Positions 4,064 to 20,000 of a DNA stretch of 20,000 nucleotides are shown piece after piece. The notes beneath the pieces are model-generated. The model did not search any database and was not told where the DNA came from. It was given only the letters and a program-made list of their open reading frames with translations. Numbering within the stretch: position 1 is the stretch's first letter; each line of letters opens with the position of its first letter. The DNA is from an uncultured virus (IMG/VR IMGVR_UViG_2061766007_000583) (lineage: Duplodnaviria > Heunggongvirae > Uroviricota > Caudoviricetes), in IMG/VR virus record IMGVR_UViG_2061766007_000583; one strand, written 5' to 3'. A program made the position numbers and the translations under genes.

Positions 4064-4141
4064 CAAAATCAGAATTGAAATCCAAAACCACTTTCACAAT
4101 TTACCGTGCTAAAGTGTTTCTGATATTCAAATATCAGAAAG

Positions 4142-4155
4142 CGAACATATGTTTG
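4142..4155. promoter_or_regulatory. LexA/DinR (Cheo) SOS box-like site
   Basis: CGAACATATGTTTG. Confidence 0.55.
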
Positions 4156-4438
4156 CCCCAATCCCCCATTAGGGTAATGCCGTAATGCGAAATTTTAACG
4201 GCTTGGCGATTCGCCCTTATGCGTGTGCGTATATGTATATAAGTACATAATTATAGATATATACAGTTAAATATAACCGATATAATATTAATATTGAATT
4301 ATAATTCAAATTCATAATTCAAATTCAATTTTGTAATTGATAATTAGAATTTATATGTATATACGTATATACATTTCTGATATTTAAATATCATAATCAA
4401 ACATAAAATAAAAAGGGTTTTTCAACCCTTTTTATTTT

Positions 4439-4666
4439 TTAAATTTCGTCATAATTTTCAAAATAGCCTATTAACTTTTCGCCGTTGTAATAAACTTCAA
4501 GATAATCGCCGTTATCGTATTCTACAGAACCGATAAACTTATCAAACAAGGGTGATACTTCATCTTTGTCAACAACTTCAACGAATAAATCAAACTCATA
4601 CATATCAGTATTAACATTGTAAAGTGAATTAACTTCAATAACTTCATTACCTAAAAATTTTTTCAT
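4439..4666 (-). CDS. Small acidic hypothetical protein (probable start MKKFLG)
   Basis: ORF track 4439-4699; AAGGA/AAGG RBS precedes the ATG at 4666; own promoter and terminator. Confidence 0.75.
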   Translation of the reverse strand: MKKFLGNEVIEVNSLYNVNTDMYEFDLFVEVVDKDEVSPLFDKFIGSVEYDNGDYLEVYYNGEKLIGYFENYDEI

Positions 4667-5147
4667 AACCTTAAATTCCTTTCTGTATTCGTGAACCATT
4701 TCACAATACTAGAATAACAAAACCCTTTTATGTTGTCAATACATTTTTAAAAAAAATTTTAAAAAATTTTATCCGACATAGTTACACTCTGATATTTAAA
4801 TATCAGAAATTCTGTTTTTGTTTTTGATTTCTGTTTCTGTTTTTAAATTCAAAATCAAATTCAAGTTTGAAATCAAATTCAAATTCGAAAATAAAATATA
4901 TATATTTAAGTTTGAAATCAAAAACAGAATTTATATTCATATTCTAAAATCAAAATTAGAATCCAAAACCATATTATATTATTATAAATCATTTAACGGC
5001 TCTGTATTGAGTTTAAATATATCAGCCGATAAAAACTACAGTAATAATATTAAAATCAAATATAGGTCAAAATAAAGCGTTATTGCTGATATTCAAATAT
5101 CAGATTGAAATACAATATAAAAAAGGCTTTTCAGCCTTTTTTATATT

Positions 5148-5225
5148 TCAGCATACACTGTTTTGAAGAGGACTTGCAAGGTGAAACATATTTCTGTTAA
5201 GGAGTTCTCTTTTAATTCTATTCAT
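5148..5225 (-). CDS. 25-aa peptide MNRIKRELLNRNMFHLASPLQNSVC
   Basis: Only ORF in a complete promoter(5299-5327)/terminator(5118-5143) unit; GAAAGAAGG RBS. Confidence 0.5.
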   Translation of the reverse strand: MNRIKRELLNRNMFHLASPLQNSVC

Positions 5226-5502
5226 AAAAACCTTCTTTCCGACCCTTTAGGTCTAAATCTAAACTATTCGCAACACGTAAGCATTACCTTACAATAATAT
5301 AATATCAAATTGCTGATATATTGTCAACAATTTTTTAAAAAATTTTTTACGCCCAATTTTTTTAGTCGGCATTTCGCTGTACACCGATATTTAAATATGA
5401 GAAGTTTGTTATAATTTTAATAATAAATATTTTAATATTCAAATTTGTTTTTACNNNNNNNNNNAATTAAATACAAAAATAAAAAAGGGCAGTTGCCCTT
5501 TT

Positions 5503-5880
5503 TTATAAACTGTAAAGATAATTCCAAAACTCTTCGGCTTCTTCGTATGATTTGCCATAGAAATACATTTCGTGTCCTATATAGGTCTCTTTTTCTCCAA
5601 ATTTCTCTTCTATTTGATTTTTGAATCCACGAATTACATTAGATACTATATTATCACAAGATTTAACGCATTCCTTAACTTCTTCTTCAGTAACAAAACC
5701 CAAACGAGAAGCACCATATAAATCGCTATAAATATCGTTGACTTTTCTATCTAATTGAGTAGTAACCAAATTCTGTAATTTAATAGCCTTTATTACAGTA
5801 TCGGCTGAATAAAAATGCTTTTCGAATCTTTCAATTGCTTCGTTTGTTGCAGTGAATAATAATGTTTCAACTAATTTCAT
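5503..5880 (-). CDS. Hypothetical phage protein
   Basis: 125 aa, AAGGAG RBS, own promoter and terminator. Confidence 0.85.
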   Translation of the reverse strand: MKLVETLLFTATNEAIERFEKHFYSADTVIKAIKLQNLVTTQLDRKVNDIYSDLYGASRLGFVTEEEVKECVKSCDNIVSNVIRGFKNQIEEKFGEKETYIGHEMYFYGKSYEEAEEFWNYLYSL

Positions 5881-6472
5881 AACCTTAATCTCCTTATTAA
5901 ATAAAAATCTGTTAACGTGTGTTCGTCTTTCGACAATACAATCATATCAAACGGCTACAGTATTGTCAATAAAAAACTGCACAAAATTTTTAAATTTTTT
6001 TGTGCATTCTTGACTGCACTATGTTCGTGTCTGATATTTAAATATCAGAAATATCAAAANNNNNNNNNNTTCCGTCTTTCGACAATACAATCATATCAAA
6101 CGGCTATAGTATTGTCAATAAAAAACTGCACAAAATTTTTAAAATTTTTTGTGCAGTTTTGACTGCACTATGTTCGTGTCTGATATTTAAATATCAGAAA
6201 TATCAAAACAGATATGTAAATATCGTATTGTAATTATAAAATCGCCCTTGCGAAATCGTGCGTTGGGTAATTCGCTAATCGCCAATCGTTTGCCGACTGC
6301 CGAGATATAGTAATGATATAATAGTACATAATATTATATATATACAGTTATATATAACTGATACTGATATTTAAATATATTTATTCATAAAGCGAAAAAT
6401 AAAAAGGACTTCGAAATTCGTTTTCGAAATCCTTTTTGAAAGAAGGTAGGTTATGAAAGAAAATTTTACTTG

Positions 6473-6694
6473 TTAGCCGTTGAATTTGTCGATTACATAT
6501 CCACCGTCGTGACCTTGTTTCCAATAATGATAAACGCCGTTGGTGTCGTCAAATTCGATATAAATTCCACCGTCGTCACCATAATCTGCTTGAAAGAAAA
6601 TCTTTGCGACTTCGAAAGTTCTTCCTTGAGCGTGAATCTTGTCACCGACTTCAACTTCGTGAACAGTCTCGTAACCGATATTTTTAATAATCAT
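6473..6694 (-). CDS. Small acidic beta-rich hypothetical protein
   Basis: 73 aa, AGGAAGG RBS, TTGACA-17-TATAAT promoter 6748-6776. Confidence 0.85.
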   Translation of the reverse strand: MIIKNIGYETVHEVEVGDKIHAQGRTFEVAKIFFQADYGDDGGIYIEFDDTNGVYHYWKQGHDGGYVIDKFNG

Positions 6695-7098
6695 ATTTTT
6701 ATTTCCTTCCTAAAATGTTTTGTTCCCTTTGTTTATCTTACAAACTTATTATATAACATAATAATAAATTTGTCAATAGTTTTTTGAAAAATTTTTTTTG
6801 TTTACTAAAATAAACATTTGTTTGCTTTTTGTTTAAAATATTAAACATTTCTGATATTTAAATATGATAAGCCTGCTGCCACTTTAGTTAATTAAAGCGT
6901 TAAAGTTTACATAAATAGTTTACATAATATAAAAATCTAATTTACTAAAAAATTTGTTTTGAGAGTAAAAAATAAAATCTAGATTTAATTTATTCAGATT
7001 TAAAATTCAATTTCAAAATTAAATCTGATATTTAAATATCAAAATCGAAATCAAAAATAAAAAACCGAAATCATAATTGAAATCGGTTTTTATTTTCG

Positions 7099-7470
7099 TT
7101 ATGAGCAATAATACAAATCGTCTTCTATCTCTGTTAACTCTGTATCAGTAAACATTCTATGAAGTGCCTTTGAAGTTTTGCCACATTCTTTATAAATGCT
7201 TTTCGCTTCTTCTACACTGTAACCAAATTCATTTGCAAAATTTGTTAAATCTAAAGCGTTATCATATGCTTCCATATCACCAATTAAGCAATTCATAACT
7301 TCTTCTAATTTAGGCATTACATAATCAGTATTACACTGATACTCGAATTTATAACTCTTTCTGTTATAAATTATCTTTCCTGCAAAAATAGTGTGATTAC
7401 TTGTAAACTGTTTACTTTTAGGATTCTCTGCTTCTTCATAACTAAATTTAATCTTGTCTAAAATCATCAT
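7099..7470 (-). CDS. Hypothetical phage protein (P-x-L-x-x-V-x-x-CL-x-x-D...F-x-x-EFGY pattern)
   Basis: 123 aa, AAGGAAGG RBS. Confidence 0.85.
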   Translation of the reverse strand: MMILDKIKFSYEEAENPKSKQFTSNHTIFAGKIIYNRKSYKFEYQCNTDYVMPKLEEVMNCLIGDMEAYDNALDLTNFANEFGYSVEEAKSIYKECGKTSKALHRMFTDTELTEIEDDLYYCS

Positions 7471-7657
7471 AACTTTGTACCTTCCTTTTCTGTTTTTGAT
7501 TATAACTTATTCTAACATATAAATTTTTTATTGTCAATAGTTTTTTTAAAAAAAATTTAAGCAAAAATTTTTTACGTTTTATCACTCCGATATTCAAATA
7601 TCATATTGGTTTACATAATATAATTACAGTTCAACCAACATAAACTGTAATCGTAAT

Positions 7658-7763
7658 ATACCTTTTAAAGTCACCAGAAGCCCCAAATTCGAACGAAAAC
7701 ATATTCTTTGATAAAATATACCTTAAAATAGTTTTCGTTCAAATATGAGCCAAATTTTGCGTT
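7658..7763 (+). repeat. Dispersed ~106-bp element, copy C
   Basis: ATACCTTTTAAAGTCACCAGAA...TTGATAAAATATACC (7708-7722)...GAGCCAAATTTTGCGTT. Confidence 0.8.
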
Positions 7764-7779
7764 TTAAGACTATATCGCC

Positions 7780-7929
7780 CTAGCGATACTCTGAAAAGAC
7801 TTTTTGTTCATACTCGTCCCAATTCTTCTGCACCTTTGATTCAAGGCATACAACACCAAATATAAAGCATAAAAGCAATGAAAAGCATATTAAACAAAAT
7901 TTCACATTCTTAATCTGTTCTTGATTCAT
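7780..7929 (-). CDS. 49-aa single-pass membrane peptide (start MNQEQ)
   Basis: AAAGGAGG RBS before ATG 7929; hydrophobic stretch FCLICFSLLLCFIFGVVCL. Confidence 0.8.
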   Translation of the reverse strand: MNQEQIKNVKFCLICFSLLLCFIFGVVCLESKVQKNWDEYEQKVFSEYR

Positions 7930-8045
7930 AACACGTCCTCCTTTATTAACTAATATAATATTAACATAAATATTATATTTTGTCAAGTATAAAATTAATA
8001 TTGTCTGATATTTAAATATCAGCGTTTAGTAATAAAAAAAGACCT

Positions 8046-8186
8046 TTAATCAAGGTCTTTCTGCAACTCTCTTTTAAGTCGTTTTCTGTCGTAATCCTTC
8101 GGCGATTTATGAGAGCGTGTTCCAGTGTTAAAGGGTACTAACACTCTATGCTTTTTATTCTTTTCTTTTAACTGTTTTTTTGTCAT
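8046..8186 (-). CDS. 46-aa basic peptide, possibly BrfA/ArfA-like ribosome-rescue factor (MTKKQLKEKNKKHRVLVPFNTGTRSHKSPKDYDRKRLKRELQKDLD)
   Basis: Hand-translated; AAGGAAGG RBS; stop lies in the terminator loop; family call from recalled motif similarity only. Confidence 0.6.
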   Translation of the reverse strand: MTKKQLKEKNKKHRVLVPFNTGTRSHKSPKDYDRKRLKRELQKDLD

Positions 8187-8517
8187 TTCTTTTAACCTTC
8201 CTTTTAATTAATNNNNNNNNNNNNNNNNNNNNNNNNNNNNNNNNNNNNNNNNNNNNNNNNNNNNNNNNNNNNNNNNNNNNNNNNNNNNNNNNNNNNNNNN
8301 NNNNNNNNNNNNNNNNNNNNNNNNNNNNNNNNNNNNNNNNNNNNNNNNNNNNNNNNNNNNNNNNNNNNNNNNNNNNNNNNNNNNNNNNNNNNNNNNNNNN
8401 NNNNNNNNNNNNNNNNNNNNNNNNNNNNNNNNNNNNNNNNNNNNNNNNNNNNNNNNNNNNNNNNNNNNNNNNNNNNNNNNNNNNNNNNNNNNNNNNNNNN
8501 NNGGGGTTAAAGGGGAT

Positions 8518-8823
8518 TTAGCAATCATAATCATAACAACCCATATAAGGATTAAATCCGATTTCATAATCATAGTCGTCATAGTCTTCGATTTCTTCGT
8601 CTTCGGTCAATCCTTCAAGTTCATATTGTTCGTGAAAATATGTTTCTTCAAGCATTGCTTTTTCTGTTTCGTCTGCACATTCTACAAGCATTAAAACGAA
8701 CAAATAAGCGTTTTCAAAAGTGTCGATTAAATATTCTTCTTCATAGTTGTTAACATTGATTTTAACGCCGTTTTCTACTCTGTAAATCTCATATTTGTTG
8801 CCGTTGATATTAAATTCTTTCAT
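8518..8823 (-). CDS. Highly acidic protein, possible DNA mimic
   Basis: 101 aa, D/E-rich tail EDEEIEDYDDYDYE; AAAGGAG RBS. Confidence 0.85.
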   Translation of the reverse strand: MKEFNINGNKYEIYRVENGVKINVNNYEEEYLIDTFENAYLFVLMLVECADETEKAMLEETYFHEQYELEGLTEDEEIEDYDDYDYEIGFNPYMGCYDYDC

Positions 8824-9000
8824 AGGTTTATCTCCTTTCTTGATAATACAATATTAACATAAAAGGCTTTTCTTGTCAATATAAAAATTGCACAAATTAA
8901 AATTTATTTCGTTATGCATATTTTGGTTTACATAATATTAATTTCTGATATTTAAATATCGGATTTTGGTTTACATAAAAAAAGACCCTATTGGGTCTTT

Positions 9001-9354
9001 TTAGTATAGCGTTTCGTCGTATCTAACGGCGATTGTTTCATCCATTCTAGCGTGTCCACGCTCAATGGCTTCGTGTCTGTCTTTAGCACTAGCAAGACAA
9101 CTCAAGCCGTTCTGTATTAAAAACTCGTTTAAATGTTTCGAAGTGGTTTTAGAATAGTTGTAATCCCTTCCAAAAGTTACAACTTTTCTAAATCCTAATC
9201 CACCTTCAGTGGCGATTTCACATACTCTAGAATCGTATGACTGAAATGCTACATAGGGTTTGTTGGTTACATTAGAATTATAATGTAATATAAACTGATT
9301 TGCGTTAGCGTTGCCGTTGGCGTTGATTAACTGTGATACTAAAATTTCTGACAT
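9001..9354 (-). CDS. Hypothetical phage protein (NQF...FQSY-x-S...YSKTT-x-K-H motif family)
   Basis: 117 aa, AAAGG RBS, own promoter and terminator. Confidence 0.85.
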   Translation of the reverse strand: MSEILVSQLINANGNANANQFILHYNSNVTNKPYVAFQSYDSRVCEIATEGGLGFRKVVTFGRDYNYSKTTSKHLNEFLIQNGLSCLASAKDRHEAIERGHARMDETIAVRYDETLY

Positions 9355-9539
9355 ATTACTTTTACCTTTCGAACCTATTTTTATCGGTTCGCCTTTCGTA
9401 TTTGATAATACAATTATAACATATACATTTTTAAAGTCAATAGTTTTGAGTAAAAAAGTTGCATAAAATTTTTAAAAGTTTTTGTGCATATTTTATAATA
9501 TATGATATTTAAATATCAGAAATAAATAATAAAAAATGG

Positions 9540-9743
9540 CTATTTCCATAGCCATTCGTATTCGTCCACGAGACGCATTTCAAGAACACAATAATAATCA
9601 TAATCGCCCCAATCACGCTCTTCATAGGCAGATTCCTGCCAACGGCGTAATTCTTCCAAACGCTTCTTATATTCGCACATAGCGTTATATGTAGCGTTTG
9701 TAAGTGTTGCAGTGATACCTTCAGAAATAATGATAGTCTTCAT
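9540..9743 (-). CDS. Small acidic hypothetical protein
   Basis: 67 aa, AAGGAG RBS. Confidence 0.8.
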   Translation of the reverse strand: MKTIIISEGITATLTNATYNAMCEYKKRLEELRRWQESAYEERDWGDYDYYCVLEMRLVDEYEWLWK

Positions 9744-9902
9744 AAAATTTATCTCCTTTTTAAATACAATGTTTTCTTAACTTCTATAATTATAATATCA
9801 CAATATAATAATTGTGTCAACACTTTTTTAAAAAAAATTTTTAATTTATTTTTAAGTATGATATTTAAATATCAGAATAACAAATAAAAAAAAGAAAAGG
9901 CT

Positions 9903-10052
9903 TTATTCAGCCTTTTCAATCATTCTTGCTTTTGTAACTTCAGCAACTGCTTTCTGTCTTCTTCTGTACTCTTCAGCCGTCGGTTTGTTAAACGGCTCTA
10001 TAACCTTTTCAAATCCTACAATTTTTTTGTTCTCAATAATCGCTCTTGTCAT
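9903..10052 (-). CDS. 49-aa peptide MTRAIIENKKIVGFEKVIEPFNKPTAEEYRRRQKAVAEVTKARMIEKAE
   Basis: Hand-translated; AAAGGAG RBS; stop lies in the terminator loop. Confidence 0.75.
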   Translation of the reverse strand: MTRAIIENKKIVGFEKVIEPFNKPTAEEYRRRQKAVAEVTKARMIEKAE

Positions 10053-10067
10053 AATTTTAATCTCCTT

Positions 10068-10136
10068 TTAAATGTTTTGTTTACGTTTAATAAGTTCTTC
10101 GTGAGTGTTCATAAAGTTTCCGATTGATTCAACCAT
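10068..10136 (-). CDS. Possible 22-aa leader peptide MVESIGNFMNTHEELIKRKQNI
   Basis: Short ORF between the promoter (10195) and the 49-aa gene; weak RBS. Confidence 0.3.
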   Translation of the reverse strand: MVESIGNFMNTHEELIKRKQNI

Positions 10137-10304
10137 TCACCCTATTACTTCCGTTCCCTTATCTTGATTATATATTATCATATTATGATATATAAGTCAA
10201 TACTTTTTTGAAAAAATATTGCACAATTTTTTTAAAATTTTTTGTGCATATTTTTTATTTATGATATTCAAATATCAGAATTGAAAACAAAAAAATAAAA
10301 GGGT

Positions 10305-10433
10305 TTACACCCTTTTATAATATTCAAGCCACGTCAAAGCGTTTGTTTCGTCGTCAAGGTCATACAATTCAATACCTTCTTTAATCATTTCGTCATAAGT
10401 TAAAATGTTTCCGTTCTGTAAATTCATAAACAT
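10305..10433 (-). CDS. 42-aa acidic peptide MFMNLQNGNILTYDEMIKEGIELYDLDDETNALTWLEYYKRV
   Basis: Hand-translated; AAAGGAGG RBS; own promoter and terminator. Confidence 0.8.
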   Translation of the reverse strand: MFMNLQNGNILTYDEMIKEGIELYDLDDETNALTWLEYYKRV

Positions 10434-10540
10434 AGGCTTTGCCCTCCTTTATTATGTTATAAGTATAACATAATATTATAATATTGTCAAGTATTATTTT
10501 TATATTGTCTGATATTTAAATATCATATTTTACGCAAACA

Positions 10541-10762
10541 AAAAAAGCAAACCGAATCTTATTACTGACGTTTGCTTCTTGTGATAGACCTTGAGTGCAT
10601 TAGGGGTCTATCGTGGTCTGATTTGCTAGGCTCAAAGCCTACACGCCCAAACGATTTAAAAATCGTTACACCCGACCTAAAAGCGTGTCCCAACGGATAT
10701 TGTATGACTAACAGTCAGTTAAGGGGGACTTCTCATAACTCCTTGCTCCTTTTTTTTATTAT
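10541..10762 (-). ncRNA. Candidate ~220-nt structured RNA
   Basis: Promoter 10769-10797, terminator about 10541-10579, only a 5-codon ORF (10719-10736), several perfect stems, higher GC than flanks. Confidence 0.6.
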
Positions 10763-10830
10763 GTATATATAATATCACAATATAAAAACATTGTCAATAC
10801 TTTTTTTAAAAAAATTTTTTAAAAAAATTT

Positions 10831-10936
10831 AACGCAATATTTGGCTCTGTATTGCGTTTAATTTAATTAGGTATAGATTTATACCTAAAATAATATAAAA
10901 TTAAATGTAGGGCATTCTGTGACGTTTAAAAGGTAT
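10831..10936 (-). repeat. Dispersed ~106-bp element, copy D (inverted)
   Basis: Reverse complement reads ATACCTTTTAAACGTCACAGAATGCCC...AAACGCAATACAGAGCCAAATATTGCGTT. Confidence 0.8.
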
Positions 10937-11015
10937 TGTATGATTTACTGTATATGTTTTTACAATATATAAATATGATATTTAAATATCAATTACGAAA
11001 CAAAAAAATAAGGGA

Positions 11016-11402
11016 TTACTCCCTTATTTCAAATTCCTTGTAATGGTCATATTTGAGTTTAAATACATTCAAGTCAATTTCTGCATTAACTTCTACACCG
11101 ATATAACCATCTTTTACATAGGTGGATTTAAACTCCTTGTAAATATCAATCGTTGTCAATTCGTTTAAATTGAATTTTAAAATTTCTTCAACAAGTTTTT
11201 CATTTTTAAATTCTCCAAACAACTGATTGATTAAACTGAATTTTGACATTAAGTCTTCTACATAAAATTCTAAATCAATACCGTCTTCGCTAATCATTTG
11301 TTTTGCTCTTCTTACAATATAATCAATAGGGTCTTCGCTACAATTGATTAATTCGTTAACTTCGATTTCAGGATAAATATTATACTTGAGTTTTAAATTC
11401 AT
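11016..11402 (-). CDS. Acidic hypothetical phage protein
   Basis: 128 aa, AAGGAG RBS. Confidence 0.85.
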   Translation of the reverse strand: MNLKLKYNIYPEIEVNELINCSEDPIDYIVRRAKQMISEDGIDLEFYVEDLMSKFSLINQLFGEFKNEKLVEEILKFNLNELTTIDIYKEFKSTYVKDGYIGVEVNAEIDLNVFKLKYDHYKEFEIRE

Positions 11403-11543
11403 ATTTTTGTTCTCCTTTTCTTTTGATACTATAACTATATCATATTATAATATAGTTGTCAATACTTTTTTTTGAAAAATTTTTATTTTATGATATTTAA
11501 ATATCATAATTAATCAAAAATAATAAAGGGATTTCTCCCTTTA

Positions 11544-12324: not shown

Positions 12325-12437
12325 AATTTTAATCTCCTTTAATGTTTTGTTTTATCTTATGTATACATTATATCATATTACAATAAATTGTCAACACTTT
12401 TTTGAAAAAAATTTAAAAAATATTTTTAAAAAACCTA

Positions 12438-12467
12438 TTGACAAAACAATAATAAATGTGTTATAAT
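12438..12467 (+). promoter_or_regulatory. Orphan plus-strand sigmaA promoter with no downstream ORF
   Basis: TTGACA-18-(TGt)TATAAT facing palindrome 12505 and terminator 12536-12557. Confidence 0.6.
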
Positions 12468-12557
12468 GGAATTGATACCAAATTATACAACAATATTGTA
12501 CAATATGATATTTAAATATCAGAAAACAGACAAAAAGAAAAAGCCTTTCGGCTTTTC

Positions 12558-12782
12558 CTAGTCAATCTCTTTCAAGATTGTTTTTGCTTTTAAAATTAAG
12601 TCATAATCTTCGCACTCGTCAAGTACCATATAACAATAATCCTTGATTGCTTTAGGGTCATTATCAAGTGTATCTTCGATATAAGCAAGTGGCTCGAAAT
12701 CGAATGAAATATCTTCATATGAGTAAGGGTCAAAGTCTTTCATTAAATTGTCGATTAAAAAAATTAACTGTTCTTTGTTCAT
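12558..12782 (-). CDS. Small highly acidic protein
   Basis: 74 aa, D/E-rich, AAAGGAG RBS. Confidence 0.85.
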   Translation of the reverse strand: MNKEQLIFLIDNLMKDFDPYSYEDISFDFEPLAYIEDTLDNDPKAIKDYCYMVLDECEDYDLILKAKTILKEID

Positions 12783-12937
12783 AATGTTTTCTCCTTTGTT
12801 AACAATGTTTTGTTTTATTTGATAATACTATTATAACACCTTGATTTTATATGTCAATACTTTTTTAAAAATTTTTTTCAAAAAAATTTTATTTTATGAT
12901 ATTTAAATATCATAAAGTGTTAGAATTAAAAATGGCT

Positions 12938-13117
12938 TTAAGCCATTTCTAATTCATAGATAATTCTTTCAGCACTTGCTAAATTTGAATAAATTCTAGC
13001 ATAACTGTAATCTGTAACATATTTAGCAACGCCACGATAATAACTTTTTAAATAAAGTTTTCTTCCTTCTTCGATTTTAAAAATCTTGTAGCCATTCCAA
13101 ACTCTTAATGTTTTCAT
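12938..13117 (-). CDS. 59-aa protein MKTLRVWNGYKIFKIEEGRKLYLKSYYRGVAKYVTDYSYARIYSNLASAERIIYELEMA
   Basis: Hand-translated; AAAGGAG RBS; own promoter (13173) and terminator. Confidence 0.8.
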   Translation of the reverse strand: MKTLRVWNGYKIFKIEEGRKLYLKSYYRGVAKYVTDYSYARIYSNLASAERIIYELEMA

Positions 13118-13261
13118 TTGATTGTTGCTCCTTTCCTTTAACTATATATACTATATCATATTATAATATTCTTGTCAATATGTTTTTGAAAAATATTTTT
13201 ATTTTCTGATATTCAAATATCAGCGACAATAAAAAAAAGAAAAGGGCTTTTCGCCCTTCTC

Positions 13262-13765
13262 TTAAATCTTTTCTCCACTCTCGATAGCGTTTACACACTT
13301 TTCATATCCTTTATATTTACTGAAAAGTCTTAATCCGTCAAGTGTTTTAAGGTTTAATTCATTACCCCTTAAATCTCTACATTTAACCACCATTGATTTA
13401 GGATTATCAAATCTCTTTTCGTAACTGTTTACAAGTTTTGTAATTGACTGAAAACCTTGTATTTCGTTACCAATGAATTTAGCATTTCCAAAGTTATCAT
13501 ATTTAGGTGCGTATCCTAAAGATTCAAGCCAAGCAGTAATATCAGCAGTGGGATTTTTAACGCTCAACTCAAGTGTATAATAAGAACTTGTTGCCTTATC
13601 ACTTGCAGTGTTTGTTGCAATTCTCTTCATTGCTTTGTGCTTTGCTTCTTCTTCACAGTGGGGACAAACAAAACCATAATTCTTCTGTCCACGATAAACC
13701 TTTTTACATAAACTCTTGTGAATTTCTACTCCACAACCTACACAATTAACCATAACTTTTGACAT
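13262..13765 (-). CDS. Zinc-finger (2x CxxC) phage protein
   Basis: 167 aa, CVGC...CPHC, AGGAGG RBS. Confidence 0.85.
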   Translation of the reverse strand: MSKVMVNCVGCGVEIHKSLCKKVYRGQKNYGFVCPHCEEEAKHKAMKRIATNTASDKATSSYYTLELSVKNPTADITAWLESLGYAPKYDNFGNAKFIGNEIQGFQSITKLVNSYEKRFDNPKSMVVKCRDLRGNELNLKTLDGLRLFSKYKGYEKCVNAIESGEKI

Positions 13766-13941
13766 AATTTTAATCCTCCTTTTTGGATTTCTTGTTTGTT
13801 TTTATCTTACAATACATATTATATACTATTAGTTTTTATTTGTCAATACTTTTTTTAAATTTTTTAAAATTTTTTTTCTTACAATATTTTCTGATATTCA
13901 AATATCAGAATCAAAATCGAAAAAAGAATAGGACTTTCGCC

Positions 13942-14268
13942 CTATTCAAAAATCTCGTATAAAGATTTTTTATAATTCCATTCGCCTTTTACTTGCATTT
14001 CTGCATAGTATGTAGCCATTTCATAGAGTTTCAAAATACTATCAGTTTCTAAAATCAATTCCCAATCTCTAGGGCAAAATGCTTGATATTCGGATTTTGC
14101 ACTCTTATAAACGATTCCAGAGTATAACCAATTTTGACCATAATCGAAATAAATATCTTCAACTGTTAACCTAAAATCCGACACTACAGTATTTACAAAT
14201 ACACAAAACGATTCAAGTCTTATTCTTTCAACTGTACCCATTGTATAAGTTTTAATTTTATTAGCCAT
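13942..14268 (-). CDS. Hypothetical phage protein
   Basis: 108 aa, AAGGAGG RBS. Confidence 0.85.
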   Translation of the reverse strand: MANKIKTYTMGTVERIRLESFCVFVNTVVSDFRLTVEDIYFDYGQNWLYSGIVYKSAKSEYQAFCPRDWELILETDSILKLYEMATYYAEMQVKGEWNYKKSLYEIFE

Positions 14269-14439
14269 TTTCTGACCCTCCTTTATTTTATATACTTATT
14301 ATATAGGATTAAAATTTATTTGTCAATACTTTTTTTAAAAAATATTTTTATATACATNNNNNNNNNNNNNNNNNNNNNNNNNNNNNNNNNNNNNNNNNNN
14401 NNNNNNNATTAAAAAGGGACTTATAAAGTCCCTTTTATT

Positions 14440-14751
14440 TTACCACAATTCCGATTCAACAACTTCTCTTTGTACGGCAACTGATTCTTGATTAAGAATT
14501 TTTTTAATGTTTTCAACAATCTCTTTTACTGTAGTTTTTTCGATAAACATTAATTCAATTCTTAATGTTTTTTCGGTTACAAAACTGCCGTCGTCGTGCT
14601 TGTAAATTCCGTCGGCTTCAAAAATTGTCGCTCCGTCTGTATAAGATAATAATAATTTCTTAATTATCTTATATGCTTCAAGTGTTGATACTTCTTGAAT
14701 TTTTGTGTCCTTGTCATTAAGTCCTACATAAAGTGTAAATTTTTCAATCAT
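14440..14751 (-). CDS. DUF3574-like / phage SAM-lyase (SAMase)-like protein
   Basis: 103 aa with G-x-T...G-x-Y...EKT-x-R...QESV-x-V motif order, similar to T3 SAMase (GCY...EEKTVRV...EQDCVLV) as recalled. Confidence 0.6.
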   Translation of the reverse strand: MIEKFTLYVGLNDKDTKIQEVSTLEAYKIIKKLLLSYTDGATIFEADGIYKHDDGSFVTEKTLRIELMFIEKTTVKEIVENIKKILNQESVAVQREVVESELW

Positions 14752-15185
14752 TTTGGTTGCCTCCCTTGTTTTGATTATGGACTAATTATATCATACCATT
14801 TCTAACTTGTCAAGAAAAAAATGCACAAATTTTAAAAATTTTTTTGTACAATTTTACCACACTGTATATTACATTCTGATATTTAAATATCAGAAAAAAT
14901 CATACTATACTTATACAACGCAATATTTCGCCCTATATGGCGTTTTATATTTTACCCCTTGCGTAATGCGTGAAAATAAATTAAGTGCCGAGCCGAGCCG
15001 TATAATGCGTTATACATATATATTATACATAATTATAGATAAGTATAGTTATATATAACTGATATTCTAATATCATATATACAATAAAGAAAAAAGGCAA
15101 TGCATTTTGCAAAGCCTTTTTTCAAACTCAAAACATTGTATAGGAGGGTTTTATGCCAAAGCAACTTTCGTTGCTTATTGCCATT

Positions 15186-15518
15186 TTATAATTCAGATAA
15201 AGGAACATAAATCTTTTCAATTTCAGATTCAGAATCTGAATCGTCTTCTTCATCTTCTTCTTCGTCGTCGTCCCAATAATCGTCTTCATCTTCTTCTTCA
15301 GTATCAAGACCAATTTGTTCAAAAATCCATTCATCTTCGAACCATAAAAGGTCATTTACTTCTGTCATTGTTGGAATTTCATCGCCATAATATGATTCAA
15401 GAAAGTTCATTAATTCATCTTCGTAACCATATTCTTCAACTGTTTTAAGAGTATCTTCTGCACCACTCCAACAAGCATTAACTAAATCATTAAAATCATA
15501 ATAATTCTTAATTTCCAT
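15186..15518 (-). CDS. Extremely acidic protein, possible DNA mimic
   Basis: 110 aa, WSGA...VNDLLWFE core plus a poly-D/E tail; AAGGAG RBS. Confidence 0.85.
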   Translation of the reverse strand: MEIKNYYDFNDLVNACWSGAEDTLKTVEEYGYEDELMNFLESYYGDEIPTMTEVNDLLWFEDEWIFEQIGLDTEEEDEDDYWDDDEEEDEEDDSDSESEIEKIYVPLSEL

Positions 15519-15792
15519 TTTGTTATCTCCTTTTGTTCTTTTCCTTACCTTGTAAATACATTATAGCATATTACTTTTAATTTGTCAAGCATTTTTTTTA
15601 TTTTATTTTTGCTTTTTTATATTTACTTTCCGTTCCCTTATTTGTTAAATACATTATAGCATAAGTATAAAGTTTTGTCAAGAAAAAGTTTTAAATTCAA
15701 AATCGAGTTTGGAATCATATATGATATTTAAATATCAGAATTTGATAAATGAAAAACGGATTCAAATTCGAAAATCAGAATCCGTTTTGTTT

Positions 15793-16197
15793 TTAGTCTT
15801 TTAAATTAACATATCCAAGTATATATTCTTCATCAGAATAAATCTTGTTGTTTGACGGATAATCACAACTAACATTAAATACTAAACCTTCTTTTTCTGC
15901 AAGTTTTAATACTTCACGTACTGCATAATCATAAGGCATTCTTCTTGTTTTGCAAAAACTAAATTCGTCAAGTTCGTCATTATTAAGAACAAAACTCTCA
16001 CAATATAATTTTTTATCGCTATTTGCATTGCCATTAAAAGCGATTCTATCAACTGTAATTGTGGGTGCATCTTGTCCATCCCAGTCTCTAATAGCAATCC
16101 CTTTTTTAGCACAATCTTTTAAAATCTCTCTAACACTATTACAAAATTCTTCAGTAATAGGTTTAGTTGTTCTTGTCCAATATCTTGTAAAACCCAT
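15793..16197 (-). CDS. Hypothetical phage protein (MG[FY]T-x-YW...FNG...FCKT-x-R-x-PYD motif family)
   Basis: 134 aa, AAGGAG RBS, second gene of a two-gene unit. Confidence 0.85.
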   Translation of the reverse strand: MGFTRYWTRTTKPITEEFCNSVREILKDCAKKGIAIRDWDGQDAPTITVDRIAFNGNANSDKKLYCESFVLNNDELDEFSFCKTRRMPYDYAVREVLKLAEKEGLVFNVSCDYPSNNKIYSDEEYILGYVNLKD

Positions 16198-16208
16198 ATC
16201 TTTCTCCT

Positions 16209-16424
16209 TTACTCTCCTAATAACATTCTTCTGTCTTCATCATAATAAAAAGTTCTTGTTTTGGTAGTTATTTTATACATACCATTGTTATTATTCTTAA
16301 CGCAATCATAAACTTTAAGTCTATCTGCTACTTCTAATTGATAGCCTACTTCGTTTAAACTGCATTCGGAATAAATAATTTCCATATTTGTTTTACCATC
16401 AGTGGTTGAGTACCATCTTCTCAT
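16209..16424 (-). CDS. Hypothetical phage protein
   Basis: 71 aa, AAGGAGG RBS. Confidence 0.8.
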   Translation of the reverse strand: MRRWYSTTDGKTNMEIIYSECSLNEVGYQLEVADRLKVYDCVKNNNNGMYKITTKTRTFYYDEDRRMLLGE

Positions 16425-16625
16425 ATCTGTTTCCCTCCTTCGATAATACTACTATATCATATTATAATAAATTTGTCAATAGTTTTTTTTATTCTTTTTA
16501 AAAATTTTTTTATTCGCTTTAAGATAATTTAAAGCGAATAACTGATATTTAAATATCAGAATACAAAATAAAAAACAGTCGCAAGGCTTTTGACCTCACG
16601 ACTGCAACAAAGGAAGGTAACAAAA

Positions 16626-17243
16626 TTATGAATAAAAACTTCTCGCTTGATTGAAAAGTTTATTCTGCATATTTTCTTTAGTGGGTTTTTCGTTTTCTAT
16701 TCTAGGTAAACCATAAACCTTGTTAACAAAATTCGGAATTGTAGAATATCTTTTGATAATCTGTTTGTGTACTTCGGCTTCTGTTCTTTTATCGTTTGGA
16801 ATAACCCAATCATTCCAATTTCTATAATAGTCAACGCCTTTATCATTAAGTATTTTAATTTCAAAATTACAACTTCCGTCGTGGTGACTGCAATGTACGA
16901 ACAAGTGTCCGTTTTCGTCATAGATTTTATAATTCCAACAATCTTCAATCATACTGAAAAATGCGTCTTTAAAATCTCCAAAGATTTTTCCACCACTATA
17001 AACGCCGTCCCACCTTCCGATACTACCAAAACAAATTATCTCTTTGTCTTCAAAGAATCTTGATAATTCTTCAAGTGTGATATCAAAATCCATTGCACAA
17101 ATATCATAAGCACAATTCTCGATTTCGTCGTCGTCAAATTCTTCTCCACTCTCTTTTAAACATTCTTCTGCATCTTTGAAATATACGTCCATATCGTAAT
17201 TATCAAAGATAATTCTTTCTTTAGCAATAGTGTTCTTTCTCAT
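16626..17243 (-). CDS. Hypothetical phage protein (G-x-IGRWDG...HHDG motif family)
   Basis: 205 aa, GGGAGG RBS, own promoter. Confidence 0.85.
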   Translation of the reverse strand: MRKNTIAKERIIFDNYDMDVYFKDAEECLKESGEEFDDDEIENCAYDICAMDFDITLEELSRFFEDKEIICFGSIGRWDGVYSGGKIFGDFKDAFFSMIEDCWNYKIYDENGHLFVHCSHHDGSCNFEIKILNDKGVDYYRNWNDWVIPNDKRTEAEVHKQIIKRYSTIPNFVNKVYGLPRIENEKPTKENMQNKLFNQARSFYS

Positions 17244-17310
17244 ATAAAAGCCCTCCCTTTTGTTTATATAACTATATTACCATACAATGTTTATTTTGTC
17301 AAGTACTTTT

Positions 17311-17532
17311 TTAACAATTACACCAAAAATCTTCTTCAACAAAACTTATGTGTCCGTATGCCTTTTCAAGAATTGAATAAGGAATATCGTCTGCATAAGA
17401 TAAATTATTAATAAATTCAACGTCTTCAGCCGATAAATCAAAATCAATATTATCAGAATAAAATAATTCTTCCTTTAATTGTATTAATTCGTCTTCAGTG
17501 CATTCATTTAAACCAAAATAAGTATCTCTCAT
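17311..17532 (-). CDS. Small acidic protein (probable start MRDTYF)
   Basis: AAGGGAG RBS before ATG 17532; C-terminal FVEEDFWC. Confidence 0.8.
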   Translation of the reverse strand: MRDTYFGLNECTEDELIQLKEELFYSDNIDFDLSAEDVEFINNLSYADDIPYSILEKAYGHISFVEEDFWCNC

Positions 17533-17696
17533 AATTGTTCTCCCTTCTTGAGTATATACATAGTATATCATATTATGTTTTTCTTGTAAATAGTTTTCAG
17601 TAAAATTTTATAAAAAATTTATAATTGTATGATATTTAAATATCAAAATTAATTTCAAAATCTGATATTCAAATATCATATATTATCCATAAAATA

Positions 17697-18254
17697 AAAA
17701 AGGACTTGTCACCTACCACAAGTCGCTTTTACTTTACATTGTTAACAGTTACAGTTAAAGGGAAAGTATCGCCACAATACTTTCCCTTTAACTTTTTCTA
17801 TACCCTATTGTACTTCTAGGCTATAGGTGGCTATGGTTTTATGCTTTTCTTTTACAACCTTGCACGGACACCTATCCACTTGGTTGACACGCTTTTTATT
17901 CCGTCTAAAAACTCTGTATATCAAAACTGACTCTCTTAACGCAATGTTACGGCACTTTTTATACTAGGTATGAAAATATGCGAACAAAATTTCTACCTCT
18001 CTTAACGCAATTTTACGATTCGTTTCTCTCGGTCTGTAAACGCAATCAAATCTCTACCTATCTTCACGCAATCTTACGCTCATAGGTTTTCACTAGGATA
18101 TAAAACCTTTAGTAATTAAAATTTCTACCTATCTTTAAGAGTATTATCTATGAGTATTACCATTTTAACACTCTAGGCAATATTTACCAACTTTTGGCAG
18201 TCAACCTATCTTAACGCAATTTTACGAGAAAAACTATAACGTCTTTTTTATTAT
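17697..18254 (-). ncRNA. Candidate ~550-nt non-coding RNA with five internal direct repeats separated by hairpin spacers
   Basis: Perfect TTGACA-17-TATAAT promoter (18261-18289), terminator 17703-17724, no ORF of 60 aa or more and no obvious RBS-ATG; repeats at 17931, 17997, 18058, 18129 (degenerate), 18206. Confidence 0.7.
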
Positions 18255-18297
18255 GTATTTATTATAACATAATCATTTTTATTTGTCAAGTACTTTT

Positions 18298-18657
18298 TTA
18301 ATAATTTCTTAAATTTATTAAAACTTTTTCGTACTCAACTAAAAACTTATCGTTATCGAAAATATCTTCAAGGGCAAGTCTTCTCTTATCAGTTAATTTT
18401 GTATAGCCGTTTTCTTCCTTGAATTTGTTTTCAAGATATTTTCTACGATTATCAATCAATTCACGTACTGCACCACACATAACAGTCTGAAATCTGTAAC
18501 ATTCCCACGTTCTGTTAGAATAGTTACAAGTATGTTTTACCTTTTCAACATTATTAATAAATAATGTTGTATCGTGTGCGAATCCGTGTCTAGTGTTTCT
18601 GTACTCGTTTACAAATTCATATTCTTTGTCGCCTACAGTAAATTTTTTAATTTCCAT
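18298..18657 (-). CDS. Hypothetical phage protein (R-x-GF-x-H...NRTWE-x-Y-x-FQ motif family)
   Basis: 119 aa, AAGGAGG RBS. Confidence 0.85.
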   Translation of the reverse strand: MEIKKFTVGDKEYEFVNEYRNTRHGFAHDTTLFINNVEKVKHTCNYSNRTWECYRFQTVMCGAVRELIDNRRKYLENKFKEENGYTKLTDKRRLALEDIFDNDKFLVEYEKVLINLRNY

Positions 18658-18691
18658 TTTTGTTCCCTCCTTTGTTTACTGTAATTATATA

Positions 18692-18919
18692 TTACCACAA
18701 ATCAAATTCAATGTCAAGATATTTTATTAAATTTGTTAAAATTTCTTTTAAGTCTTCATTATGATAAGGCATTGCAGTTTTTATTGCATTATTTGGATTA
18801 TCTTCTACATAATATATATAGATATATCCGTTATTAATATCAATTTTATCTACAAACTTATATATATCTTTTAATATATTATTTAAATGATTTAATTCTT
18901 TAATAGTAATAATGGTCAT
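18692..18919 (-). CDS. Hypothetical phage protein
   Basis: 75 aa, AAAGGAAG RBS; the next promoter is embedded in its 3' end. Confidence 0.75.
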   Translation of the reverse strand: MTIITIKELNHLNNILKDIYKFVDKIDINNGYIYIYYVEDNPNNAIKTAMPYHNEDLKEILTNLIKYLDIEFDLW

Positions 18920-19109
18920 ATCTTTGTACTTCCTTTCTTTAATCTAAAACTAGAATATCATATAATTTTTATTTTGTCAATAAGGAATTTTATATTATCT
19001 GATATTCAAATATCAATATAGTTTTGAATATTGTAATATTGAATTTCTGATATTTAAATATCAGAAATTCAAAACATAAAAAGGAATAGGATTTCCTATT
19101 CCCTTTTCA

Positions 19110-19325
19110 TTATCTCCCAGCCTTTGCCTTTAAGTCCAAGAAAGTCTCTTTGTATTTTCGGCACTCTTCGGCAATATCTTTTATTGTGCTGAAATTGTCC
19201 CACTTGCAACCGTCGGCAGTATAGACAGTATATTCGTTTACTACTCTGCCTTTACGAACTGAATAATAGCAAGTACGAGCAATATGTATTCCGTATGTAT
19301 TTTCCAAATAAGGTTTACTAATCAT
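19110..19325 (-). CDS. Hypothetical phage protein
   Basis: 71 aa, ATGA overlap with the upstream gene, AAAGGAG RBS. Confidence 0.8.
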   Translation of the reverse strand: MISKPYLENTYGIHIARTCYYSVRKGRVVNEYTVYTADGCKWDNFSTIKDIAEECRKYKETFLDLKAKAGR

Positions 19326-19519
19326 TCTTTTACTCCTTTATTCAATTCACTCTTAATAAGATTAAGACTATATTGCATAGAATCAATTAAAGACATTCCG
19401 TATAAACAAGCGTCTTCAAAAGTATCTTCTTCAGCCATTTCAATTTCGTCTCTGATATACTCGCAATCAAGTCTTACACTTTCAAGTTTGTCCATTACCT
19501 TTTCTAAATCAACATTCAT
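19322..19519 (-). CDS. Small acidic helical protein
   Basis: 65 aa, AAGGAAGG RBS. Confidence 0.8.
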   Translation of the reverse strand: MNVDLEKVMDKLESVRLDCEYIRDEIEMAEEDTFEDACLYGMSLIDSMQYSLNLIKSELNKGVKE

Positions 19520-19585
19520 AATTAAAACCTTCCTTTCGTGTTTTCGATAATACTAATATATCATATATCAATTAATTTGTCAATA

Positions 19586-19771
19586 CTATTGTGTAAAATA
19601 TTTTTCATTAATTGATTTTGCCATAGTCTCACCATATTTATTTATATAATCAATAATGAGATTCTGTTCTTCTTCTGTATAATCATTATCGTCACATATT
19701 CTATAATATGCTACAGAAATCGCCGTTAATAAAGTATCTTTTGCAATTGCTTTTGCTTCTGTTTTCTTCAT
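19586..19771 (-). CDS. Hypothetical phage protein
   Basis: 61 aa, AAGGAG RBS, promoter at 19825. Confidence 0.8.
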   Translation of the reverse strand: MKKTEAKAIAKDTLLTAISVAYYRICDDNDYTEEEQNLIIDYINKYGETMAKSINEKYFTQ

Positions 19772-20000
19772 AATTCGTCTCCTTCCTTCGAACCTAAACC
19801 AATCTTATCACATTCAGATTCGTTTGTCAATAGGTTTTTTAAATCGTCTGATATTTAAATATCAGATTTAAATCAAAATCAGAATCAATTTCGATATTGA
19901 AATATTAAATTGATTTTCTAAAAACTGACCGATTATGTTTACGAAATCGCATATGCGTTTATCGTCGAGCGTTGCCGAGTTATTAATATATTATATATAA

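Follow-up and report, generated by a model that had tools for sequence, protein, structure and literature searches.

A repeated palindrome at the unit junctions of an early-gene array in an uncultured phage, and its possible role as a docking site for a regulator

The early-gene array and its palindrome

The window analysed here is a stretch of 20,000 nt from an uncultured virus of the Caudoviricetes (IMG/VR record IMGVR_UViG_2061766007_000583), and our subject is an 18-bp palindrome, CTGATATTTAAATATCAG, repeated many times within it. From 4120 to 19865, the minus strand carries an array of 29 small early genes (42-205 aa), delineated by open reading frames (ORFs) with Shine-Dalgarno motifs together with promoter and terminator scans; the array probably extends beyond the end of the window. 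The usual unit comprises a terminator, the palindrome, an A/T-rich UP-like tract, a promoter of the form TTGACA-17-TGnTATAAT, an AAGGAGG-type ribosome site and an ORF. The original prediction, made from the sequence without database searches, had described an integron-like array in which nearly every gene is its own unit and all genes lie on one strand. All 29 genes are indeed co-oriented, the strand being the minus one for genes, promoters and terminators alike. One gene per unit is likewise the typical layout, although some units consist of two or three genes, with internal promoters (19583, 18717, 18289 and 17302) that have neither a terminator nor a palindrome. Plus-strand ORFs with Shine-Dalgarno-like motifs at 5181, 5493, 14320, 15107 and 15950 were dropped as promoterless shadows; minus-strand ORFs nested inside longer genes were dropped too.

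The cargo genes had been described as mostly unrelated to each other, and an all-against-all BLASTP comparison of the 37 window proteins gave no pair at E <= 1e-3. An isoelectric point below 5.5 is shared by 19 of the 29 array proteins. Small basic proteins of the array are encoded at 8046-8186, 9903-10052, 12938-13117, 13262-13765, 18298-18657 and 19110-19325. Only three of the 37 could be assigned to named families: a HicA-like protein (138-338), a DUF3574 protein (14440-14751) and a DUF8033 member, the 117-aa protein encoded at 9001-9354. The first two reach the curated Pfam cut-off; DUF8033 was assigned by other means, and its clusters carry viral labels. PHROG matches at E <= 0.01 were found for eight of the 37 proteins (seven of them clear), and the 205-aa protein (16626-17243) has 90 metagenomic homologues, with relatives on 44 viral contigs of IMG/VR, mostly 42-192 kb in size. 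Contigs in ENA and Logan carry homologues of the 205-aa protein and of the DUF8033 member, with identities from 97% down to 69%. Taken together, the PHROG matches, the viral contigs carrying relatives of the 205-aa protein and the viral labels of the DUF8033 clusters indicate that the window is phage DNA. The public runs containing it are labelled as bovine gut metagenomes, and two of these runs may be its source. Its G+C content is 21-32% per kilobase, and the style of its promoters and ribosome sites points to a low-GC Gram-positive (Firmicutes-type) host. In large uncultured phages, most of the unknown genes are found in the early regions, and anti-defence and host-takeover genes are probably among them; the cargo here may be of this kind. 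Recoding of stop codons was considered and rejected: TAA (28 genes), TAG (7) and TGA (2) all act as stops, so the standard code applies.

When up to three mismatches were allowed, the palindrome was found in 33 copies, all within 4120-19865, while 200 shuffles of the sequence gave a mean of 0.07 copies and a maximum of one. None is present in 1-4100, even when the 14-bp core is searched with up to two mismatches, and all 33 copies lie outside the 29 accepted array genes, i.e., the palindrome is strictly intergenic. A search with the core added two weaker copies, at 6211 and 19893. The number, the range and the intergenic location claimed from the sequence alone are thus borne out, with one correction. 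One copy, 6031-6048, is part of a 149-bp duplicate (repeat family D20, copies 94% identical) that adjoins a run of undetermined letters (N run) at 6060-6069. Contigs of two independent runs lack this duplicate: record 2 of run X4 skips 5924-6072, and record 6 of run X5 skips 5922-6070. The copy is therefore probably an assembly artefact, and the real count is probably 32. It is also important to note that N runs (5455-5464, 6060-6069, 8213-8502 and 14358-14407) mask parts of three junctions. Those at 8213-8502 and 14358-14407 cover the start and junction of gene 8046-8186 and the DNA upstream of promoter 14326, and they may conceal one or two more palindromes.

The core of the palindrome is TGATATTT/AAATATCA, with a weak extension to a dyad of 22-24 bp. 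In the 32 sites left after removal of the duplicate, it reads T-G-A-T-A-T-T-T, then A (24 sites) or G (8 sites), then A-A-T-A-T-C-A; positions 1-6 and 9-13 are invariant in all 32, and the centre is the sole tolerant position. The preferred flanking letters are C or A ahead of the core and G or T behind it, with TTT..AAA further out. In the copy 15721-15738, the centre base 15729 is C in contigs of three other runs. The sole common variant replaces the central TTTAAA by TTTGAA in the direction of transcription, eight times against none in the mirror orientation among the 32 sites; we read this one-way variant as a trace of copying by descent or of strand-biased mutation. Tandem copies are spaced 29-48 bp apart in the window and 28-34 bp apart in a metagenomic relative, locus L071, described below (about three to four and a half helical turns).

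Two other roles for the palindrome were considered and rejected. An RNA hairpin or cruciform is not expected from what appears to be untranscribed DNA between terminator and promoter, where a stem of 7 A/T base pairs would have little strength. The motif GATATT within the palindrome, which is comparable with SPO1 late promoters, had suggested a late or alternative-sigma promoter; however, the palindrome is not accompanied by a conserved upstream element.

The position of the palindrome is best described from the side of the terminators. A relaxed hairpin search of the array returned 18 terminator-like structures on the minus strand, and 17 of them are followed by a palindrome after a gap of 9-23 nt; the single remaining one runs into an N run. 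On the promoter side, the array contains 31 minus-strand consensus promoters, 23 of which have a palindrome upstream at 35-128 nt and one at 195 nt, measured from the start of the palindrome to the -35 element. The original prediction had placed the palindrome upstream of the -35 at a variable distance of about 20 to over 100 bp. Both the upstream position and the variability hold; the figures are replaced by those given here, and the tighter link is to the preceding terminator. No palindrome overlaps the -35 or -10 elements of the main promoters, and the feature map agrees with the earlier view of the palindrome as a mark of unit boundaries rather than a part of promoter cores.

Many copies are framed by a terminator on one side and a promoter on the other. 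Thus, the exact copy 8005-8022 begins 13 nt past the terminator 8062-8036 and lies 36 nt before the -35 at 7986. The copy 8945-8962 lies 16 nt past the terminator 9002-8979 and 83 nt before the -35 at 8879, 9502-9519 lies 14 nt past 9557-9534 and 79 nt before 9440, 9858-9875 lies 18 nt past 9917-9894 and 55 nt before 9820, and 10261-10278 lies 16 nt past 10318-10295 and 78 nt before 10200. The same arrangement is seen at 11490-11507 (9 nt past 11550-11517, 45 nt before 11462), 12000-12017 (15 nt past 12056-12033, 45 nt before 11972), 12505-12522 (13 nt past 12559-12536, 128 nt before 12394), 13206-13223 (13 nt past 13263-13237, 45 nt before 13178), 13891-13908 (17 nt past 13947-13926, 62 nt before 13846) and, as another exact copy, 16542-16559 (15 nt past 16605-16575, 80 nt before 16479).

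Other copies are placed most readily by the promoter that follows. These are 4789-4806 (exact; the -35 at 4739 lies 67 nt downstream), 5384-5401 (two mismatches; 74 nt before the -35 at 5327, with an N run directly upstream), 6180-6197 (exact; 79 nt before 6118, with the degenerate copy 6211-6224 lying 29 nt upstream), 6851-6868 (92 nt before 6776), 7587-7604 (three mismatches; 67 nt before 7537), 10509-10526 (36 nt before 10490), 12896-12913 (56 nt before 12857), 14876-14893 (exact; 80 nt before 14813), the polymorphic 15721-15738 (57 nt before 15681) and 19848-19865 (exact; 35 nt before 19830, with the weak copy near 19893). Two tandem pairs are also present. In one of them, the promoter-side copy 17629-17646 and the terminator-side copy 17662-17679 are 33 bp apart, the latter lying 23 nt past the terminator 17724-17703. 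In the other, the copies are 48 bp apart: the promoter-side copy 18999-19016 lies 36 nt before the -35 at 18980, and the exact copy 19047-19064 lies 13 nt past the terminator 19107-19078.

Most of the remaining copies open stretches of DNA without genes. The copy 4377-4394 lies 10 nt past the terminator 4438-4405 and opens the gene-free interval 4138-4376, and 5086-5103 lies 10 nt past 5147-5114 and opens 4807-5085. The copy 7025-7042, past a hairpin 3' of gene 7099-7470, opens 6869-7024; 15059-15076 (three mismatches) opens 14894-15058; 6364-6381 (three mismatches) lies 19 nt past the terminator 6437-6401. Long gene-free spacers carry a palindrome at each end (4394/4137, 5103/4806, 6381/6197, 7042/6868 and 15076/14893). 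The copy 10975-10992 begins 12 nt past the terminator 11030-11005, its next promoter being 195 nt off. Finally, 4120-4137 (one mismatch) comes last in the direction of transcription, next to the palindrome-free region 1-4100.

Seven promoters of the array have no palindrome. Those at 19583, 18289 and 17302 abut an upstream stop codon and have no terminator before them; the promoters at 18717 and 11782 are intragenic, 15588 is the second of a tandem pair, and 14326 follows an N run. The promoter 18261-18289 (minus strand) matches the consensus at 12 of 12 positions and abuts the stop of gene 18298-18657. The palindrome-free flank, 1-4100, has genes on both strands and consensus promoters at 641, 1612 and 1704 (minus) and at 1728 and 3159 (plus). 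Since terminator-less promoters and equally strong promoters in 1-4100 are all without the site, we conclude that the palindrome tracks terminator-bounded junctions and not promoters in themselves.

The promoter cores match the consensus at 10-12 of 12 positions, mostly with a TG extension, and together with the UP tracts they form repeat families of their own (10-15 copies, 60-80% identity). The 22 independent distances between site and promoter fall at 35/36 nt (four), 45 nt (three), 55-57 nt (three), 67 nt (two) and 78-80 nt (five, or six with the duplicate), with outliers at 62, 74, 83, 92 and 128 nt. When the -35 hexamer is set at -35 to -30, the site centres lie near -62, -72, -82, -94 and -106. 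A Rayleigh test gave R of 0.50-0.56 at periods of 10.9-11.5, with Monte-Carlo p values of 0.0024 (periods 10-11.5) and 0.008 (periods 8-14). We regard this apparent helical phasing as suggestive only, because the 78-80-nt class shares a second inverted repeat, the spacers consist of phased A/T tracts, and the pattern in L071 is not clearly alike. The second inverted repeat, TGCACAAAA..TTTTGTGCA, lies between palindrome and -35 at long-spacer promoters, as at 5975-6003 (minus strand, family D20). With A/T letters between its arms, it also occurs directly upstream of the -35 at 6124-6152, 9448-9476, 10206-10236 and 14819-14848, and it could serve some of the units as a second operator.

Relatives of the site and turnover of the cassettes

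The palindrome is rare in the databases. In IMG/VR, the 18-mer was found in two lone copies, no paired sites were present, and a lone site followed by TTGACA occurred four times. A paired-site scan of 185,579 species genomes of GTDB, with single sites outside its reach, returned only one unrelated 22-bp tandem repeat. A metagenome scan with an exact 16-mer gave at least 122 loci, and among the matches listed nearly all were lone sites in unrelated contigs, with a single holder of an array, L071. One of the metagenome contigs, which is richer in G+C (L157, 270-380), has an exact 18-mer among GAATATC/GATATC-type repeats before a terminator; this copy may belong to an unrelated element with a similar binding motif. 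Searches of 50,697 phage records gave no match to 4000-20000 (megablast), a single chance-level match of 66 nt to 1-4000 (blastn) and none to the 205-aa protein (tblastn), and DUF8033 found two weak tblastn matches in unrelated phages. In the full text of open-access papers and preprints, we came across no account of such palindrome arrays at the early promoters of phages.

L071 comprises the first 5973 nt of a 16.7-kb contig and contains 19 copies of GATATTTAAATATC with at most one mismatch. Its layout is that of the window: the sites follow terminators and precede TTGACA/TATAAT promoters of small genes, often in tandem pairs or triples. It shares only two of the 37 window proteins, at 36-38% identity, and the neighbours and order of these two genes differ. 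The flank preference of the site differs as well. A site that is far better kept than the genes around it, with a shifted flank preference, is what might be expected of a protein and an operator that evolve together.

This palindrome is absent from all 44 IMG/VR loci that surround relatives of the 205-aa protein, so its layout appears specific to a narrow lineage. L034 is the sole one among them with any repeated dyad, ACTTTA-N6-TAAAGT, which is clustered and not placed at each junction. This locus shares two window proteins, and its dyad occurs in 12 loose copies at 300-650 and 3940-4210, where the clusters are interleaved with TGTATACA palindromes in long non-coding regions.

Turnover of the cassettes could be followed in contigs of four independent runs from four studies (X4, X5, X7 and X9), aligned to 4000-20000 at a likeness of at least 85%; the events below are a sample, drawn from the 32 pieces listed (there are 1305 others). 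In record 21 of X9, a 510-bp deletion (11436-11945) removed gene 11544-11912 together with its palindrome, 11490-11507. The junction lies inside 12-nt identical -10 blocks of two promoters, and an identical 18-nt palindrome 45 nt away was not used. In record 4 of X4, 13910-14501 is replaced by about 1000 other letters, one boundary being at the palindrome edge 13909 and the other inside a gene (14502), beyond an N run. The same record has about 650 letters in place of 15796-16625, with both boundaries at stop codons (15795 and 16626), and a deletion of 243 bp (17986-18228). Many short joints with sides of 21-33 nt were rejected as rearrangements, being repeated promoter or palindrome pieces from elsewhere or from other phages.

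In these pieces, cassette turnover is real and intergenic, and it is not centred on the palindrome. The original prediction had read the palindrome as a possible recombination site of an integron-like capture system and had proposed to look at breakpoints in relatives. In the four other cattle-gut runs, these lie mostly in intergenic DNA or at stop codons, and one coincides with a palindrome edge. No recombinase or integrase family was found among the 37 proteins of the 20-kb window or the seven of L071 (Pfam, PHROGs and NCBIfam), the units have their own promoters and terminators, the site is symmetric, and the deletion used -10 boxes; the integron-like reading is thus not supported. Cassettes would rather be gained and lost by ordinary recombination between repeated intergenic modules (promoter cores, possibly with the palindrome as an identity patch). 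Turnover here requires no dedicated enzyme, and the integron analogy should be corrected accordingly.

The likeness to integrons is limited to a palindromic site at every boundary of a one-directional array of unrelated small genes. An attC site is 57-141 bp long, with long imperfect inverted repeats, R and L boxes and extrahelical bases, whereas the site here is an A/T-rich, near-perfect dyad of 18 bp (at most 24 bp) without such boxes. No IntI was found in the window, and it has neither attI nor a common Pc promoter; instead, 23 of the 31 promoters follow a palindrome, and 18 terminators split the units. Host-takeover modules of SPO1-like phages and Kayvirus also have many small early genes on one strand with their own strong host-type promoters and terminators, but we know of no repeated palindrome at their unit boundaries.

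Another analogue named from the sequence alone is the promoter early stem-loop (PeSL) of T4-type phages, and this comparison seems to us a fair one. PeSLs combine a consensus host-type early promoter, an AT-rich tract and a terminator stem-loop between the small ORFans of a plastic region (PMC2839356), and recombination between them leads to insertions and deletions (Arbiol et al. 2010, PMC2839356; Comeau et al. 2014, PMC4122927). Subclasses with a stem-loop in the upstream AT-rich region are also described (PMC2839356). Both systems share a repeated intergenic module made of a stop codon, a terminator, an AT-rich tract, a host-type promoter, a Shine-Dalgarno motif and a small ORFan; the promoters here are of the consensus sigma-70 type (10-12 of 12) with an A/T upstream tract. 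Both also show indels between modules, represented here, in the pieces listed, by one promoter-to-promoter deletion and two segment replacements. However, no separate invariant palindrome is described for PeSLs, and the PeSL stem-loop is G/C-rich and usually lies in the promoter or overlaps it. In the window, the terminator is a separate hairpin located 60-170 nt upstream of the -35 (18 junctions), the palindrome lies between them, and this added A/T-rich 18-bp dyad can form no stable hairpin. PeSLs occur in hyperplastic regions of T4-like myoviruses, and the window gives no sign of belonging to these: no match beyond the chance-level one was found among the phage records, and its signals are of the low-GC Firmicutes type. 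Overall, we liken the workings of the array to those of a hyperplastic region rich in PeSLs to which an operator-like dyad has been added; it is neither an integron nor a stoperator system.

A putative docking site and its alternatives

Several features together favour a protein docking site: the core is conserved across deep divergence, the centre of the dyad is free to vary, copies in tandem are about three helical turns apart, and the site lies in untranscribed DNA. We infer that a protein recognises the palindrome by its sequence, probably as a dimer; it is most likely a phage product and probably repressive or insulating in its effect. Judged from sequence, we give this reading a little better than even odds (about 0.55). 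The binding-site option had already been raised in the original prediction, and it fits best with the core being kept in L071, where shared proteins are only about 37% identical, with the free centre of the dyad and with the tandem copies. Judging by the few lone hits in IMG/VR and by the paired-site scan of GTDB, the site is neither a host-wide nor a virus-wide motif.

According to this scenario, there would be one docking site at each junction where a terminator-ended early unit gives way to the next, in DNA that is presumably untranscribed. The site begins 9-23 nt past the terminator stem, and its centre would lie about 62-155 nt upstream of the next start site. The bound protein would act on transcription of the whole block, most likely negatively; with promoters already so close to the consensus, repression or insulation is likelier than activation. 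One option is a roadblock. Considering the footprint of RNA polymerase, a protein bound 9-23 nt past the stem would meet the enzyme on or just past the U-tract and block read-through into the next unit. The other option is that strong early promoters are shut off from an upstream position, as by KorB at its OB sites or by protein p4 of phage phi29 via the alpha subunit; a route through the alpha subunit would explain the preference for one helix face. Roadblock and upstream repression do not exclude each other.

It is tempting to suppose, although we consider it rather unlikely, that a new type of phage unit-boundary protein is at work, with a dimer sitting past each terminator and at least one helical turn before the next promoter, thereby coupling termination to the next cassette. 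Such a protein would be both a roadblock and a topological insulator for about thirty strong promoters and could turn the block off at one stroke. If this were true, a single protein would switch off the whole host-takeover block at once. 

We know of no large uncultured phage for which the timing and non-interference of about thirty consensus-strength promoters have been worked out. An invariant site at terminator-promoter junctions provides a handle with which the regulator might be fished out, and the 18-mer could define the whole early regulon of the lineage from sequence alone and help to recognise related phages.

Known regulators offer partial parallels. Plasmid RK2 carries about a dozen OB sites. 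From these distant palindromic sites KorB, a ParB-family CTP-dependent sliding clamp with KorA as its partner, silences promoters (PMC11790492). The likeness lies in a palindromic operator repeated on a mobile element at variable distance from promoters within one global regulon, but the motif is unrelated and no ParB-like or KorA-like protein was seen in the window. Stoperators of cluster A mycobacteriophages, bound by L5 gp71, occupy short intergenic spaces and are proposed to halt transcription elongation (PMC9283540). The array resembles them in that a short site recurs over twenty times, in small gaps between genes and off the promoter cores; all 33 copies here are intergenic and clear of the main -35 and -10 elements. 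However, the stoperator is described there as an asymmetric 13-mer, bound by a monomer and oriented with transcription, with an immunity role in temperate phages (PMC9283540), while here the dyad is symmetric and belongs to an array whose early promoters are strong. No family of immunity repressors with a helix-turn-helix (HTH) and a stoperator domain was found among the 37 window proteins.

The phi29 case offers a parallel for repression from upstream. Work by Monsalve and colleagues in 1996 reportedly found that p4 represses the early promoter A2c via the alpha subunit of the polymerase. This mechanism would match our reading in its upstream-bound phage protein, its strong early promoter, its low-GC Gram-positive host and a dependence on the helix face. 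The p4 sites differ in being few and of another form, with no known link to terminators, and no p4 homologue was detected in the window.

Several points weigh against a docking site. No DNA-binding family was found among the window proteins by sequence searches of Pfam, PHROGs, NCBIfam and the PDB or in the Atlas; the original prediction had recommended looking for a recombinase or an HTH protein, and neither was found among the 37. Structure models of the two proteins common to the window and L071 are confident (pLDDT 92.0 and 94.3), but no solved look-alike was found for them (none at E <= 0.001 in Foldseek; best VIA Z-scores 4.6 and 6.7), which in itself says nothing about function. No informative matches were obtained for the array's small basic proteins or for the zinc-ribbon proteins (3257-3778 and 13262-13765). 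Simple repressors do not usually bind as far upstream as -62 or beyond. The significance of the phasing is only moderate, and the distances are not independent, as the six promoters at 78-80 nt have the second inverted repeat in common; nor does the phasing clearly recur in the proximal distances of L071 (44, 44, 47, 49, 59, 68, 89 and 91); phased A/T tracts in the spacers could alone quantise the distances. The tight gap between terminator and site could likewise just mirror compact intergenic DNA. Finally, the one-way centre variant is in keeping with modules copied by descent, and gene conversion instead of binding could therefore account for some of the conservation.

This last point leads to an alternative that we consider unlikely, namely that there is no dedicated binder and that the palindrome is simply the best-kept part of a PeSL-kind module, a homology patch homogenised by recombination or gene conversion. 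Promoter cores and UP tracts are repeat families here as well and turn up again, as matches of 21-35 nt, in many contigs from other runs, the centre variant has the single orientation expected of copies by descent, and one deletion did arise from promoter-to-promoter recombination. However, the core is kept in all 32 window sites and in the 19 sites of L071 (there with at most one mismatch), whereas nearby promoter and UP bases are 60-83% identical. Conversion between the window and L071 is impossible at about 37% protein identity, yet the same 14-mer is present in both, and the dyad symmetry and the tandem spacing of about 30 bp would be left without a role.

Of slightly lower probability is a class-I-type activator, a dimer bound on one helix face that would recruit RNA polymerase via the alpha C-terminal domain, in the manner of CRP. 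Class I CRP dimers are positioned at about -61.5, -71.5, -82.5 and -92.5. Here, 18 of 22 centres fall near -61.5/-62.5, -71.5, -81.5 to -83.5, -93.5 and -104.5 to -106.5 (p 0.002-0.008, for distances that are not independent), and UP-like A/T tracts lie between site and -35. Nevertheless, promoters with 10-12 of 12 consensus positions and mostly an extended -10 should need no activator, and equally strong promoters without a site exist both in the array (18289 and 15588) and in 1-4100. An activator would also give no account of post-terminator sites without a nearby promoter (4394, 5103, 6381, 7042 and 10992), and the phasing does not clearly recur in L071. Activation by the palindrome thus appears unlikely.

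We find it still less probable that the phage has borrowed a transcription factor or nucleoid protein of its host, which would bind the site and could, for instance, report on the state of the cell. Such a factor could act before any phage protein is made, as the early genes use host-type promoters, and no phage binder was found among the window proteins. Against this, the paired-site scan of the 185,579 species genomes, which misses single sites by design, gave only the unrelated tandem repeat, and the metagenome loci (at least 122) were, among the matches listed, almost all lone sites in unrelated contigs, with L071 as the one array.

The least probable alternative is a site-specific recombination site, integron-like or other, at which a phage recombinase would capture, excise and reorder cassettes: the palindrome does bound every unit (gene-free ones included), gene content and order are strongly unlike those of L071, and one X4 replacement boundary lies exactly at 13909, but no integrase or recombinase family was found among the 37 window proteins or the seven of L071, a dyad symmetric through its centre cannot set direction although 29 of 29 genes are co-oriented, the X9 deletion used the 12-nt -10 blocks and not the 18-nt palindrome 45 nt off, the other replacement boundaries are at stop codons (15795 and 16626) or in a gene (14502), and the cassettes bring their own promoters and terminators, unlike integron cassettes.

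Further features of the locus and of related contigs

In the palindrome-free flank, the HicA-like toxin family protein (66 aa, minus strand) has a Pfam E value of 2.9e-8, and the overlapping upstream gene 310-612 could encode its partner. A tRNA search of the window returned nothing, and six Rfam matches were all under their gathering scores. The stretch 17690-18290 (minus strand), driven by the promoter 18289, has no convincing ORF; it contains a perfect 19-bp hairpin (17753-17793) followed by a terminator, with a folding z-score of -5.95, and is a candidate small-RNA cassette. The 243 bp deleted in the X4 variant (17986-18228) lie within it. The gene-free stretches 7605-7779, 3800-4010 and 10800-10980 (minus strand) have the motifs ACGCAAAATTTGGCT and (A)AGGTATATT in common, and 7640-7779, taken as RNA, folds much more stably than shuffled versions of it (z-score -4.05). 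These stretches could be small RNAs or promoters of another class.

Two of the gene-free intervals that run from palindrome to palindrome, 4138-4376 and 6198-6363, have about 60 nt in common (..AACTGTATATAT.TATAAT.ATGTACT..), after which the sequence is richer in G+C; their folding z-scores are only -1.1 and -2.1. An A/T-rich filler of roughly 8-nt periodic words (GATTTNGA and GAAATTGAAATC) is located beside palindromes in the window (4810-4960, 6990-7060 and 19870-19930), in L071 (75-260 and 5830-5973) and in L034 (1650-1770). L071 also has a gene-poor region at 2150-2450 with DnaA-box-like words, where TGTGGATAA occurs about four times and GTTGATAAC several times, and which may be a replication origin or a DnaA-titrating region. 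Similar TTGGATAACCACCCC repeats are present in L034 at 1706-1835 and 10028-10081.

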